Virus record (IMG/VR): IMGVR_UViG_3300017698_000118
Coordinates: 1-64,000 of that record
Source of the DNA: an uncultured virus (IMG/VR IMGVR_UViG_3300017698_000118)
Lineage: Duplodnaviria; Heunggongvirae; Uroviricota; Caudoviricetes
DNA: 64,000 nucleotides
Strand: one strand, 5' to 3'
The translations under genes and the position numbers were made by a program. The notes below the pieces were generated by a model that saw nothing but the letters and a program-made list of their open reading frames with translations, had not been told where the DNA came from and ran no database searches. Numbering within the stretch: the stretch's first letter is position 1; each line of letters begins with the position of its first letter. Below, in pieces: positions 41,241-45,799 of the stretch.

Positions 41241-41623
41241 AGGAGAGGATTATGACTATCGACATCGAACGACTGAAGCATGACTTGGATTACTGGAACT
41301 CTGTTGCTCCAGAAGAGGCGACTCATTACATCATTGATGATGACGGCAAATCGCGGCATGTAATCCAGCCTGGATTCTATCTCGACGAAGGGGATACATG
41401 GTGGCAATGTGACGGGTACAGCTACTGGCGCAAGGACACTGTCAACCCTCTTACGTCCATCCCCCGCCCCGCCCTGTTATGGGATGGCGAGGGACTTCCG
41501 CCTATCGGAAGCGAGTGCACTATCAAGGATGACGGTATACTGAGAACCATAAAAAAACACGGTATGCGAAGCGTGTACCGGGATCTGGCTAAAGGCATTC
41601 TTCGTCGTCTTACTTTAAAATAG
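41237..41623 (+). CDS. Hypothetical protein, paralogue of 38599-39159
   Basis: IDIERLK.D..YW..VAPE.A and WDGEGLPPIG. Confidence 0.6.
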   Translation: MKERIMTIDIERLKHDLDYWNSVAPEEATHYIIDDDGKSRHVIQPGFYLDEGDTWWQCDGYSYWRKDTVNPLTSIPRPALLWDGEGLPPIGSECTIKDDGILRTIKKHGMRSVYRDLAKGILRRLTLK

Positions 41624-41743
41624 GTATCCCTATGTTAGATAACCCATGGATTTTTTCAGCCGCAGTAATATTCGTTTGTCTGGCTTTGGTAGGGCTCTAT
41701 GAAATAATCTGTGGATTATTTAAATATCTTGCTGGTGAGAGAG

Positions 41744-41935
41744 ATGATGACTAAACCTTCAGATGTTGAGATCAGTAGGCTACAACTGATGAAATCCAAG
41801 GAAGAATGCCATCAGCTCCAAATGGAAAATGCTAAATTGAAAAAAGAGATCAACAAACTTGAGTCTGATCTCTTAAAAGAAATATCCCGCAATGCGGAAT
41901 TAATGACATTTTTAACTTTATCTGATGAGATTTAA
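41744..41935 (+). CDS. Small coiled-coil hypothetical protein
   Basis: Heptad pattern. Confidence 0.5.
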   Translation: MMTKPSDVEISRLQLMKSKEECHQLQMENAKLKKEINKLESDLLKEISRNAELMTFLTLSDEI

Positions 41936-41937
41936 CT

Positions 41938-42147
41938 ATGCCTAAAACCAACGAAGAAAAGAATCATGTACGAGGGGAAGAGCACTACTGTGCGAAACTG
42001 ACAGAAGAGAATGTTATTGAAATCAGGAGACTCGTGAATGAATTGGGGCTGTGCTGCACTTGTGTGAGAAAACTCTTGAAACTGGAGTGTTCTAATCATG
42101 CAATCTGGGAATCGGCTTCTGGTAAAACTTGGAAACATCTTCCCTAG
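41938..42147 (+). CDS. Stand-alone HTH domain of the type found at HNH endonuclease C-termini
   Basis: RGEEH..AKLTEENVIEIR...SGKTWKHL. Confidence 0.65.
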   Translation: MPKTNEEKNHVRGEEHYCAKLTEENVIEIRRLVNELGLCCTCVRKLLKLECSNHAIWESASGKTWKHLP

Positions 42148-42149
42148 AT

Positions 42150-42419
42150 TCAAAGGGCGATACACTTTTGAAGTATCGCCCACAGAATCACATTCTGTTT
42201 AGCTAGATTTGCTCTATCTAAACTAATTGCTTTAGCTTTATCAAAGATTGTAGAATCTTTATCTAACAATTCCCCTTCAAGTATAAAACTTTCTGGTAAA
42301 TCAGATTCCTCTACACACTCCACCATTACGGGAACCTCTACTCGTTTAATCACGACAGTAGGTTCCCTGCTTATACATCCTGCCAACACCAATACCATCC
42401 CTAAAACCAATATCTTCAT
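42150..42419 (-). CDS. Rz1: Outer-membrane spanin (lipoprotein)
   Basis: Signal peptide with LAGC lipobox, VEVPV..C; last gene of the lysis cassette. Confidence 0.75.
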   Translation of the reverse strand: MKILVLGMVLVLAGCISREPTVVIKRVEVPVMVECVEESDLPESFILEGELLDKDSTIFDKAKAISLDRANLAKQNVILWAILQKCIAL

Positions 42420-42814
42420 AGCCCTAACGCCTCATCCATAACTGCTTCAGCATCAGCACAAGTAACCCCTTCCATTTGCTCAAGAGAGCGTATTCTCTCT
42501 TTCAGGGATGCCTGACTAGCCCTAGCCTTAGAAATAGCAATAGCGGCCTCTTCTTGGCGCTTCTGGTTATGTTCTTTGAGATCAGTGACAGCATTATTTT
42601 GATCTTCCAAAGCCAATTCCAATGCAATACGGTTACTCTTACAAACGCCGTAATCCACTTTCAGCCTTTCAATTTCTACTTTTAAAGCAGAATTAGTGAC
42701 CTTTAATCCCGTATTTTGGATGTAAGAATAAACTGCATAAACCAACAGAGGGGCAATAATTGCAGCAGCAATGTAGCCTACTGCTTTTACAGTAAGGTTC
42801 TGCAAAATACTCAT
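42416..42814 (-). CDS. Rz: Inner-membrane spanin
   Basis: N-terminal TM helix, coiled coil with QNNAV, C-terminal Cys. Confidence 0.75.
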   Translation of the reverse strand: MSILQNLTVKAVGYIAAAIIAPLLVYAVYSYIQNTGLKVTNSALKVEIERLKVDYGVCKSNRIALELALEDQNNAVTDLKEHNQKRQEEAAIAISKARASQASLKERIRSLEQMEGVTCADAEAVMDEALGL

Positions 42815-43089
42815 GTCATTGGCCTGTTATAGCCTGAATCAGATTTTGCTTTGGATCTGGCATACTGATTAAGTCCACCGCCCATAGCATTTGAACCAAA
42901 TAAACCAACAGTAACGAGCGCCCAGTCCCCTGATTCAATAACTTTGAACCACATCAAAGCAGAGGATATGAGTAACCCGAAACATAAAAGCAAAAACAAG
43001 AATGCCTGTAAGTGATCGTCTATTAACTCAATCCAAGTTCGACAGTACTCACGGGCAGCGTTAGGGATATTACAAAACCATTTCATCAT
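42811..43089 (-). CDS. Holin/antiholin-like membrane protein
   Basis: Two TM segments; between endolysin and spanins. Confidence 0.55.
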   Translation of the reverse strand: MMKWFCNIPNAAREYCRTWIELIDDHLQAFLFLLLCFGLLISSALMWFKVIESGDWALVTVGLFGSNAMGGGLNQYARSKAKSDSGYNRPMT

Positions 43090-43652
43090 TGATTCACCCT
43101 GTGTCTGAACCAGCCATAAGTGAAATCTTCATTGGCTTGTCTGCCAATATTGGGGTCTATATTACCACTAATAGTAAATAAGTAATGACCGAATAAAGCT
43201 TCCAGAGCAGATAACAAAGTTTCCGCAGGATATTCACCGGAACGGTATGTCATGAAAGAGTTGAAAGCGGATAAAGTCTGCTCTCCGATGATTCCATCAG
43301 TAGCAATATCTGGATAAATAGATCCCTTCTTATTAAAGAGATTCAGAGACATTTGAAACCACTGGGAAGGTTTATCAGGGCCACAGAGAACACCTGCATC
43401 AAAAAGTCGATAACCTACTTCTTCGTCGATATCTGCCACTCTCCCAAAATTAGGAGCAGTGTAGTACTTGGTGAGATAGATATGGATTGCTACATCCCGA
43501 GGGAGATTATTCATTGGCCCCATGTAATTATGACGCCTAGCGGTGGCTTCTGTAATACCCCACATTGTTTCTCCCCCACGATCTGAGGGATGGTTGGCAT
43601 AACGCCCTTCCTTGCCAATAGTGCGTTCAATTGCTGCACGTACTTTGTCCAC
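43086..43652 (-). CDS. Endolysin, glycoside hydrolase family 108 with PG-binding domain
   Basis: EGRYANHPSDRGGETMWGIT catalytic motif, DGIIGEQT, NEDFTYGW..HRV. Confidence 0.92.
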   Translation of the reverse strand: MDKVRAAIERTIGKEGRYANHPSDRGGETMWGITEATARRHNYMGPMNNLPRDVAIHIYLTKYYTAPNFGRVADIDEEVGYRLFDAGVLCGPDKPSQWFQMSLNLFNKKGSIYPDIATDGIIGEQTLSAFNSFMTYRSGEYPAETLLSALEALFGHYLFTISGNIDPNIGRQANEDFTYGWFRHRVNQ

Positions 43653-43664
43653 AGGTAAGCCTCT

Positions 43665-43977
43665 CTAGTCGCGGCCTCGCCACTTGGATATCTCAGTCAC
43701 CATATTAGCAAGGTGTTTGGTTACAGTATCATTAAGAGTTGTCTGTTGTTCTATCAAACGTTGATCCAACTTCTCTATCGAAATTTTGAGATCCTGGCGA
43801 TCCCGTTCGATAATCTCATAAANNNNNATCTTTTCTATCAGCTTCTCTTCCGTTTTGTACAAATCTATACCCAGCTATGGCATGGCCAATGAGGATAAGC
43901 ATCGCTATGGCGAACTGGAGAATGTCTGATAATTCCATAGCAGCTACAGCCTCTTGGATAGTTTGAATAATTGCCAT
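43665..43977 (-). CDS. Putative holin (one TM plus coiled coil; spans NNNNN gap)
   Basis: MAIIQTIQEAVAAMELSDILQFAIAMLILIGHAIAGYRF...[gap]...YEIIERDRQDLKISIEKLDQRL; first gene of the lysis cassette. Confidence 0.5.
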
Positions 43978-44207
43978 AGTCTATCAACCCTCGCGTGTGC
44001 ACTCAAAACATAATTGGGTATAGTTTGCCTACTTTAGTTGAAATATTATGTTAAAGGTTTCAATTATAGTAAAAAATTTTACACACTTATTACTAAACAA
44101 TAGTAAATATCATTAGTTAGCTATTGTTCTGTTTTGTGATGATTATTTAAGGTTTCCATTGCGAGGAAAGCCGTGCCGTTCCGGTCAAAGAGCGGCGACT
44201 AATTCAT

Positions 44208-44248
44208 GCGCCCATGGCCAAATTGGATAAGGCATGAGGTTTTCTAAA
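44208..44248 (+). pseudogene. 5' half of a tRNA-Arg(UCU)-like sequence
   Basis: GCGCCCA-TG-GCC-AAATTGGATAA-GGC-A...TTTCTAA, with no 3' anticodon strand, T arm or acceptor 3' strand. Confidence 0.65.
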
Positions 44249-44310
44249 TGGCACTTTTGTCTTGTTTTTTGGTTTGCAGCGAATGGAATGAAGTATTAAT
44301 CTATCAATGC

Positions 44311-44404
44311 TGAAATCATAGCTCAGTGATCCACCTGAAAAGTACCCGGTTGTTTGATCGCGATTGGCAAAAAAATTCGGGTGGATTACTGAGCTATGGC
44401 TTCA
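44311..44404 (+). ncRNA. Long hairpin RNA (29-bp stem, 3 G-U, 1 mismatch)
   Basis: TGAAATCATAGCTCAGTGATCCACCTGAA pairs with TTCGGGTGGATTACTGAGCTATGGCTTCA. Confidence 0.7.
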
Positions 44405-44423
44405 TATGGAGAAGCATAATCTA

Positions 44424-44506
44424 CCTATACGGGTGTGTTCTGAGAACCGATAGCGGACAGCAAAGCTAACCAATATCAAACGTCATACAGAACACACCCT
44501 TATAGG
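44424..44506 (+). ncRNA. Long hairpin RNA (18 bp, one mismatch)
   Basis: CCTATA-C-GGGTGTGTTCTG pairs with CAGAACACACCC-T-TATAGG. Confidence 0.65.
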
Positions 44507-44512
44507 ACGGTT

Positions 44513-44676
44513 TCCGGGTATGGGTATCCCCGTTTTGCAGCGGGGTGATGAATCCCTCCGGTTTACGGAGATAAGCACCGACCATCCTATAGCGAGTCGG
44601 CGTGACTCGTAGCTGTTGATACTCAACAGAGTGGAGGCTAATCCAAGCGCCAATCTGGGGGAGGAGCCCGGAGCCA
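44513..44676 (+). ncRNA. Multibranched RNA with tRNA-like acceptor stem and 3' GCCA
   Basis: TCCGGGT/GCCCGGA-G-CCA closes four internal hairpins. Confidence 0.55.
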
Positions 44677-44899
44677 TTTCCCGTAACCCTTAGTGACCTA
44701 ATACAAATTTTCGATTCTTGGAAAAAATCATTAAGTAAAAAACAGAATTAACAAGAATGAGGATAGTAGCCCGAATCCCTGTACTGGTTAAGACTACTAT
44801 CCAATAGTCCGGTGGCTACCAGACTGGCAACAGATCATGACCTGTGCAGGCTCATATGCACCAAACCCGGCAATGAGGTGGAAAGCCTCTCTTATTTTA

Positions 44900-44964
44900 G
44901 GGCCGATAGCTTATGTGGCAGAAGCGTCCGACCCATAATCGGAAAATCTGGTAATATCTGGCCT
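44900..44964 (+). pseudogene. tRNA-CAU (Met/Ile2)-like sequence lacking a T arm
   Basis: D stem GCTT/AAGC; anticodon stem TCCGA/TCGGA with loop CC-CAT-AA; no TTCGA loop; imperfect acceptor. Confidence 0.65.
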
Positions 44965-44976
44965 TTTTATAAAATT

Positions 44977-45006
44977 AAAAGCCCCTTCTTAGTGGAGGGG
45001 CTGTTT
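44977..45006 (+). terminator. Terminator-like hairpin (possibly bidirectional)
   Basis: AAAAGCCCCTTC-TTAGT-GGAGGGGC-TGTTT. Confidence 0.6.
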
Positions 45007-45060
45007 GCTATCTGATGAGACTGATTGAGATCCAGTCGAAACTCCTTTGGAGTCATAGCG
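45006..45060 (+). ncRNA. Hammerhead ribozyme (type I)
   Basis: Stem I GCTAT/ATAGC, core CTGATGA, stem II GACTG/CAGTC, GAAA, stem III CTCC/GGAG, GTC cleavage triplet (cut after C45054). Confidence 0.92.
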
Positions 45061-45101
45061 TCTCTATCTAAGCTCCCGAGTGCAGGGAGCCATGATAACT
45101 A

Positions 45102-45200
45102 TCTCTTACGGATATACGCATACTGCCGACCATCACAGATAGCGCTGTGACCTGTGCGGGTAGTTTGGTCAACTAAAACCTAAGAGACCTTCCGTATCCA
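45102..45200 (+). ncRNA. Multiply pseudoknotted structured element
   Basis: Five crossing 5-7 bp pairings plus an internal hairpin (see findings). Confidence 0.5.
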
Positions 45201-45427
45201 AAAATAAATCAACACATCCAGCCTATGTGTTGGTTCGGAGGTAAAGGATATCAAAGGTTACTAGCAACACCGTGAACCCTAGGGACGAGGGGGAGGTGTT
45301 TGCTAGGGTTCTAATTCTATTTACCTCAATCCCATCTAGTAAATAACCCTACTGGTCACTTTACTGCGACAAGGTGGGATTGAGTTCTATTGCCTACAAA
45401 TTCCTCGCAAGAATTTATCCCCAATAA

Positions 45428-45799
45428 ATGAGAAAAACTATGGAATTTGTTATTAACGCAAACCCAAATAATGATCTAGTTAAACTATCCAATAAAAATA
45501 TAGATAAATCTTTTGAGAAAGAGATATATCACTGTAAGCAACTGGCAGAAATGCTGCACACAAGTGGCAGTCCAGTATTTGATCCCACGACTAGATTTCG
45601 AGCCAAAGAGCTAGGATTTACTTACATATCCTGCTCGCATAAAGCGATAGACGCAGGAACTACTGTTTTCACGGTCTATTTACAAGATGAATTTAATCGA
45701 CCAAAGATAAGGGTAGATTTCTACACAAACAGGTATGTCCATGTAGTGGATCGTACTAAAGCAGTAATTAAATTTACTAAGTACTATTTTAATCTATAA
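45428..45799 (+). CDS. Hypothetical protein
   Basis: 123-aa ORF following the RNA cluster. Confidence 0.6.
   Translation: MRKTMEFVINANPNNDLVKLSNKNIDKSFEKEIYHCKQLAEMLHTSGSPVFDPTTRFRAKELGFTYISCSHKAIDAGTTVFTVYLQDEFNRPKIRVDFYTNRYVHVVDRTKAVIKFTKYYFNL

Follow-up and report, generated by a model that had tools for sequence, protein, structure and literature searches.

The tRNA cluster of phage T4 contains the species 1 and species 2 RNAs, which are stable RNAs of unknown function. Phage tRNA islands also contain tRNA pseudogenes, 5′ fragments with acceptor, D and anticodon arms that stand at the positions of intact orthologues. Intergenic type I hammerhead ribozymes of phages and prophages (RF00163) have been proposed to cut long phage transcripts into operon-length or gene-length mRNAs, according to the parts of Perreault et al. 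(2011; PMC3088659) drawn on here. We compare with these systems a 1.45-kb gap at 43978-45427 of a 64,000-nucleotide stretch of DNA from an uncultured N4-like phage (positions 1 to 64,000 of IMG/VR record IMGVR_UViG_3300017698_000118; hereafter the window). The gap has a leftward lysis cassette on its left and a rightward operon of replication genes on its right, and an earlier note had read it as a cassette of about a dozen structured RNA modules. In our judgment it is probably a decayed tRNA island that runs on into the long 5′ leader of the operon to its right, read on the + strand and carrying a hammerhead ribozyme, with tRNA genes that were lost by recent deletions. The dozen-module cassette was an over-reading, since one relative and a few metagenome contigs show that the region is largely debris of tRNA-gene turnover.

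The relative is L004, a metagenome contig whose ATPase is 87% identical to that of the window and the single close relative from one metagenome scan. Our comparison set comprised two full sequences, the window and L004, together with contig fragments from four other metagenome runs. In the same gap L004 carries, intact and on the + strand, the genes for four tRNAs, tRNA-Arg-UCU (933-1009), tRNA-Met-CAU (1564-1640), tRNA-Asn-GUU (1647-1721) and tRNA-Leu-UAA (1733-1819), which supports the suggestion of a former tRNA cluster read on that strand. As defined with blastn and MAFFT, the blocks shared by the two sequences are an upstream block with the start of tRNA-Arg (window 44123-44247, L004 847-971), the remnant of a small open reading frame (ORF) followed by a long hairpin, hairpin 1 (44237-44435, 1110-1307), block II (44583-44681, 1464-1562), the 5′ part of tRNA-Met (44900-44942, 1564-1606), and a stretch with the hammerhead, the leader and the start of a 123-amino-acid (aa) ORF (44990-45530, 2043-2585). 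To the left of the gap, L004 shows no relation to the lysis cassette of the window; the island sits at a module junction. Contigs of run X5 are 95 to 99% like the window, and contigs of run X6 show the arrangement of L004. Synteny, deletions, hammerhead architecture, conservation and the strand-specific preservation of base pairs are all observed directly in this set.

The two broken tRNAs that had been noticed in the gap are real remnants. The first (44209-44234, +) is a 5′ fragment of tRNA-Arg(UCU) with the acceptor strand and D arm, the remainder being deleted; it aligns with L004 933-958, the first 26 nucleotides (nt) of the intact gene. The second (44900-44944, +) is the 5′ two-thirds of a tRNA(CAU), with acceptor strand, D arm and anticodon arm but with the T arm deleted, and it is 82% identical to tRNA-Met of L004 over 1564-1606. 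Each is collinear with the tRNA gene that L004 keeps intact at that site, the relation that marks a tRNA pseudogene. Contigs of X5 and X6 extend beyond 44234 with anticodon-arm letters (of tRNA-Arg UCU in X5; loose ends read by eye), and past 44944 an X5 contig continues with the letters of a canonical T-loop and with a strand that complements the 5′ acceptor (a 30-letter loose end, likewise read by eye). These extensions and the intact tRNAs of L004 indicate that the two broken tRNAs are recent deletion scars, no different from the ordinary pseudogenes of phage tRNA islands and not designed decoys, as had been supposed. ARAGORN found no tRNA genes in the window. The first fragment (44209-44247) gave no Rfam match, and the second (44900-44964), which lacks a T arm, scored 18.1 bits against RF00005, where the cut-off is 29.

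Both deletions can be delimited against L004. One, of about 150 nt, cost the window two-thirds of tRNA-Arg (the 3′ part) together with the 5′ half of a small ORF, and X6 has 153 letters at this site where the window has 5. Positions 44240-44313 (+), previously listed as an RNA module, are the 3′ remnant of that small protein gene: they align with an L004 ORF (1028-1186; 52 aa, with a Shine-Dalgarno site), and a loose end of X5 before 44240 matches the same ORF. The other deletion runs from the T arm of tRNA(CAU) to a point 16 nt before the hammerhead, leaving 47 nt in the window (44943-44989) against 436 nt in L004 (1607-2042). L004 also has two extra T-arm-like remnants, at about 1308-1370, where two copies of the canonical T-arm motif GGTTCGATTCC stand without the remainder of a tRNA (read by eye); the island has therefore been turning over in both lineages. 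Two small hydrophobic ORFs with ribosome-binding sites lie inside the tRNA island of L004 (1028-1186, 52 aa; 1979-2065, about 28 aa), the second of which ends in the TGA of the hammerhead CUGAUGA core; the window retains only C-terminal remnants of both frames.

The hammerhead itself, a canonical type I ribozyme at 45006-45060 (+), has an open stem I of 6 bp and stems II and III of 5 bp each. Its core letters are CUGAUGA at 45012-45018 and GAAA at 45038-45041, with a pair between A45041 and U45053 and with C45054 at the cleavage site, and they are identical in L004. Stem I joins a UGCUAU 5′ strand to an AUAGCG 3′ strand, stem II reads G-ACUG ... CAGU-C and stem III ACUCC-UUU-GGAGU. A descriptor consisting of the core and stems of at least 5, 4 and 4 bp matched only here in the 73-kb genome, both strands included, and gave no strict match in 300 dinucleotide shuffles, in agreement with the earlier note. 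The element is kept in L004, X6 and X8; C45045T converts a C-G pair of stem III to U.G, and C45032A sits in loop II. Self-cleavage is predicted after C45054, between C45054 and A45055, and would give 2′,3′-cyclic phosphate and 5′-OH ends.

With the phage and prophage hammerheads described in PMC3088659, so far as they are drawn on here, the element shares the 13-letter catalytic core and GUC cleavage site, an open stem I with closed stems II and III, an intergenic place at the end of the upstream frame, and the proposed role of cutting a long phage transcript. In the window and in L004 the stop codon of the upstream frame falls inside the CUGAUGA core. Unlike the examples in those parts of PMC3088659, the ribozyme of the window lies where a tRNA island of an N4-like phage ends, and the conserved leader that follows it is long rather than short. 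A search of one literature collection found no mention of hammerheads together with Schitoviridae or N4-like phages, and we record it as a new example in an N4-like phage.

The Rfam model Hammerhead_1 (RF00163) aligns over its full length (1-45) with 16.8 bits, below its gathering cut-off of 34, and the best Rfam match is RAGATH-1 (RF03152), with 20.0 and 21.1 bits against a cut-off of 56.3. The alignment with RAGATH-1 is full-length and includes a hairpin upstream of the ribozyme, but that hairpin is missing in L004 and so is not a conserved part; a terminator-like GC hairpin directly before the hammerhead (44980-45002, +) is specific to the window, its 5′ arm being absent from L004. A pattern made from the hammerhead core and stem II retrieved 28 unrelated viral contigs (L009-L036), 23 of which gave stems I and III; the other five (four copies of one sequence, and L011) gave none. 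An alignment of 17 viral hammerheads shows covariation in stem I, and not one of 18 unique viral hammerheads from the pattern search reaches any Rfam hammerhead cut-off, suggesting that these cut-offs are insensitive for such phage hammerheads. The 28 contigs have no tRNA within 2.5 kb and no homology outside the ribozyme, which suggests that the hammerhead of the window is an ordinary phage intergenic type I hammerhead. By eye, many of the hammerheads found with the pattern have a TAA within the 5′ strand of stem I or immediately ahead of it, like the stop codon of an upstream gene. Two of these unrelated contigs, L016 and L031, hold ribozyme-rich phage operons, with Twister-P5 above the Rfam cut-off at L016 2808-2863 and 3253-3308 and at L031 3291-3345, about 0.3 to 0.8 kb from the type I hammerheads.

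From the predicted cut to the first gene runs a folded leader of the rightward operon, about 373 nt long (45055-45427, +), with hairpins at 45072-45090, 45209-45233 and 45325-45384, a multibranch element at 45102-45187 and a stem at 45261-45306. The three stems near its 3′ end that had been pointed out are present and conserved. Hammerhead and leader together (44990-45417) differ from an L004-like X6 contig at 31 of 428 nt (about 93% identity), and the conserved block spans from 16 nt before the hammerhead to about 10 nt before the start codon. Against the L004/X6 lineage, 44240-44435 has 11 differences and one gap in 196 nt, and 44589-44681 has 2 differences in 93 nt. The non-coding blocks are thus about 93 to 98% identical to L004/X6, compared with 79.6% for the ATPase gene, and the 123-aa ORF is poorly conserved and only patchily alignable with that of L004.

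Between the window and L004, a consensus fold of 45054-45430 has 7 of its 99 pairs changed and none broken. In the stem at 45261-45306, A45263G with T45304C and A45266G with T45301C are full compensations, A45305G gives a U.G pair and T45299C falls in a bulge. This haplotype is common to four runs and L004, except that X9 keeps A45305, and a single shared haplotype implies few independent events. No sequence that spans the hairpin at 45325-45384 shows a change in it (X9 covers it only as far as 45345). A pseudoknot in 45103-45199 appears possible by eye, and C45117T would keep one of its pairs as U.G. The check for covariation among homologues accordingly yielded two compensated pairs, in a comparison limited to two full sequences and contig fragments, and we regard the leader as a candidate RNA with two full sequences behind it.

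Strand specificity was assessed with structures predicted from the window alone, which avoids the bias of a consensus fold, and the substitutions of L004 were then scored on them. Over blocks I to III, 17 of 25 changed pairs are kept on the + strand and 5 of 23 on the - strand (Fisher p=0.0017); with the upstream block included, the counts are 18 of 29 and 7 of 25 (p=0.016). Among 28 changed local pairs, 15 survive on the + strand alone and 3 on the - strand alone, while both strands keep 2 and neither keeps 8 (binomial p=0.0075, with one position counted twice), which bears out the + strand bias in G-U pairs claimed in the earlier note. These patterns suggest selection as + strand RNA on hairpin 1 and block II and also on the hammerhead and the leader. 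The leader, conserved better than the genes around it and with both strand-specific and compensatory substitutions, makes a small candidate, open to testing, for a phage RNA that acts in cis.

The folding scan, made in 120-nt sliding windows with 40 dinucleotide shuffles per window on both strands, placed strong structure in a few places only. Most scan windows in 44120-45320 have + strand z scores of +1.0 to -2.5, comparable to those of the coding flanks, and the gap is not the wall-to-wall run of helices that had been described. The two long hairpins of the earlier description are real. Hairpin 1 (44316-44399, +) has a 23-bp outer and an 8-bp inner helix, rich in G.U pairs; its scan window (44300-44419) gave z scores of -7.8 on the + and -5.4 on the - strand, with minimum free energies (MFE) of -53.3 and -39.4 kcal/mol, respectively. 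Its four substitutions against L004/X6 (G44379A, A44388G, C44347T and G44348A) all keep pairing, as G.U, on the + strand only. We regard it as a candidate processing site, for a double-strand nuclease of the RNase III type, or a candidate stable RNA of the tRNA operon. The 5′ arm (44317-44335) contains the 9-letter tRNA D-arm motif ATAGCTCAG, found also in tRNA-Met of L004; an origin of hairpin 1 by inverted duplication of a tRNA 5′ fragment was considered and set aside, the 9-letter match being weak and roughly at chance level.

Hairpin 2 (44424-44506) pairs 44424-44442 with 44488-44506 in 18 bp with one mismatch around a 45-nt loop, and its scan window (44420-44539) gave -3.3 on the + and -3.9 on the - strand. 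It has no G.U pairs and hence carries no strand information; it is present in an X5 contig and missing from L004/X6. The scan window 45320-45439 gave -4.5 on the + and -4.2 on the - strand, and two windows in 44900-45079 gave -2.5 and -2.2 on the + strand and -1.7 and -1.0 on the - strand. Block II (44583-44681, +), which forms three or four short hairpins in 99 nt, is 96% identical to L004 1464-1562, where it is the 5′ leader of tRNA-Met, and C44627T changes one of its G-C pairs to G.U. Directly 5′ of the tRNA-Arg position, 44151-44208 (+) is a conserved two-hairpin block nearly identical in L004, with G44197A turning a U.G pair into U-A. Between block II and the tRNA(CAU) fragment lies an insertion (44682-44899, +) shared with X5 only and not with L004, which scores between about 0 and -1.1 on the + strand and includes a 9-bp stem at 44761-44802 as well as, at 44875-44889, a weak hairpin that resembles a terminator. 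The 9-bp stem (scan window z -1.1), where C44802T in X5 turns G-C into G.U, does not stand as a module, and of the multibranch RNA with a CCA end the last 99 nt are conserved, but the rest is not, and its z scores are -0.6 to -1.0. Hairpin 2, the 9-bp stem and most of this multibranch RNA are lineage-specific filler.

No Rfam family matched at gathering scores anywhere in the window, and the E-value mode (43900-45600, E<=10) gave only four weak matches: a microRNA model on hairpin 1, RAGATH-1 at 44979-45059, tRNA at 44900-44964, and a microRNA model on the 9-bp stem. No match to twister, pistol, hatchet, HDV-like, GOLLD or ROOL models was found over the same interval at E<=10. In the mitochondrial mode of ARAGORN, 44123-44205 is called as a tRNA look-alike that fails the standard tRNA tests.

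We propose the following course of events. The island and the rightward operon would be co-transcribed on the + strand, and host enzymes would release the tRNAs where these are present. The hammerhead would cut after C45054 and so part a precursor of tRNAs and non-coding RNA, ending in a 2′,3′-cyclic phosphate, from an mRNA beginning at A45055 with a 5′-OH and the folded leader. A 5′-OH end is a poor entry point for 5′-monophosphate-dependent RNases. Hairpin 1 would be an RNase III-type site or a stable by-product, and the remaining "modules" would be junk from indel turnover. What we infer here is that the island is transcribed and its RNA cleaved in vivo, and also what hairpin 1 and the leader do.

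Several points weigh against this account of a decayed island and its operon leader. Eight of the 25 changed + strand pairs in the MFE structures predicted from the window alone are broken, mostly long-range ones, and two changes in the upstream block (44123-44234) favor the - strand. Most variants belong to two haplotypes, so that the compensatory changes may amount to one or two events, and the identity of the blocks could in part reflect recent recombination of a cassette and not purifying selection. Block II is absent from X5, in which 51 other letters replace 44516-44684, and is therefore dispensable there. The Rfam scores of the hammerhead fall short of the curated cut-offs, although none of the 18 unique hammerheads from the pattern search attains them either. 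The deletions are read from one assembly, and runs that match 98% of its words may be its source.

A more ambitious reading, which we hold to be doubtful, is that the hammerhead-headed leader of about 373 nt (45055-45427) and hairpin 1 are uncatalogued folded RNAs of phage tRNA operons, with a job of their own that outlasts the loss of the tRNAs. If so, that job might be, for example, the regulation of the replication operon or the countering of a host nuclease, with the ribozyme setting the 5′-OH end of the RNA. T4 offers a parallel: in L004, hairpin 1 and block II are likewise conserved, folded non-tRNA RNAs between tRNA genes of the same strand. They differ from the T4 RNAs in having no sequence or Rfam similarity to them, the window phage has lost its own tRNAs, and the T4 RNAs are stable species, whereas hairpin 1 is a candidate for one.

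The gap might also act as DNA, as a replication origin, a packaging or recombination site, or an array of promoters with inverted repeats that form DNA hairpins. N4 virion RNA polymerase promoters act as DNA hairpins, and the site is a divergent module junction. The scan windows of hairpin 2 and of the hairpin at 45325-45384 have similar z scores on both strands, and 45320-45384 is invariant wherever it is covered, which would fit a site for a sequence-specific protein or polymerase. Against this, the asymmetric retention of pairs on the two strands is not expected of DNA cruciforms, the tRNAs and hammerhead all lie on the + strand, and motifs of the region recur elsewhere in the genome only as chance matches of 13 to 17 nt. 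We consider a DNA-level element improbable.

Nor do we find it at all probable that hammerhead and leader (45006-45427) form an independent non-coding RNA gene, whose product would be a stable RNA freed by the ribozyme and not an mRNA leader. The compensatory changes, and conservation better than that of the ORF downstream, would suit such a gene, but the block reaches the ribosome-binding site of the next gene, and no tRNA-like element, terminator or ribozyme that could form a 3′ end was found in 45385-45427.

Very improbable is the idea that a self-processing polycistronic set of decoy or regulatory RNAs, about a dozen in number, replaced the tRNAs, for instance as T-arm-less mimics that soak up anticodon nucleases: the tRNA(CAU) remnant does keep acceptor-like ends, a D arm and an anticodon arm and is called a T-arm-less tRNA by the mitochondrial mode of ARAGORN, which places 3 of its 12 genome-wide calls in the 1.3 kb of the island, and one hammerhead is present, but both remnants are deletion products of tRNAs that are intact in L004 and extended in X5, one "module" is a truncated small ORF, most others are at chance level in folding score or lineage-specific, and the ribozyme is single, with no second ribozyme family at E<=10. 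Nothing in these comparisons points to the counter-defence role suggested for such an array. The conserved RNAs have not replaced tRNAs either, since L004 carries hairpin 1 and block II, together with hammerhead and leader, beside four tRNAs that are intact, and hairpin 2 and 44685-44857 coexist in X5 with the loose ends that extend both tRNAs.

The setting of the island is that of an N4-like phage, as had been recognized. PHROGs matches include the virion RNA polymerase, a phage RNA polymerase, rIIA/rIIB, an AAA ATPase, a Dda-like helicase, DNA polymerase and primase; the full viral record is 73,364 bp with direct terminal repeats, and the ATPase is less than 45% identical to those of the closest named phages. 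Positions 43978-45427 are real non-coding DNA with no credible ORF, in keeping with the earlier claim: the gap contains 12 ORFs of 25-67 aa, of which not one matched Pfam at E<=1 or is conserved in L004. A 41-aa ORF with a TTG start (45025-45150), present in both phages, was rejected as coding because the 5 substitutions in it are not biased toward third positions (judged by eye). An AT-rich spacer from the lysis cassette to the island (43978-44122; GC content 0.33-0.35), not homologous to L004, is presumed to be a divergent promoter region; sigma-70-like sites were at chance level, with 4 found and 3.4 expected.

A DNA search of a phage database with 44000-45450 found no match, and exact-pattern scans found no match to three conserved blocks in viral contigs and none in genome contigs. 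Among the sequencing runs listed as containing the stretch, none is an RNA run. At distant loci with the same synteny, no comparable gap, hammerhead or tRNA upstream of the ATPase was seen in L001, L002, L005-L008, Erwinia phage S6 or Vibrio phage D505; in the last two, small + strand genes run uninterrupted from the RNA polymerase region to the ATPase.

To the right of the gap, the rightward operon begins with the 123-aa ORF (45428-45799, +), of no known family, followed by the ATPase gene (from 45811, +). The true start of the ORF is probably the ATG at 45440, since its L004 homologue begins at the second ATG in the alignment and has a ribosome-binding site there. To the left, the leftward cassette includes the endolysin (43086-43652), with small ORFs as far as 43977. 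The lysis cassette as a whole (42416-43977) lies on the opposite strand between the early/RNA polymerase block and the replication operon, and it also encodes small membrane-type proteins and a 132-aa coiled-coil ORF. The record has one run of five N (43823-43827, in the small ORFs left of the gap) and ten single N. A second non-coding gap, between convergent genes at 41623-42416, has several 120-nt scan windows with z scores of -2.3 to -4.75 on both strands and probably represents bidirectional terminators; one tRNA look-alike within it (42147-42223, - strand) comes from the mitochondrial mode of ARAGORN.

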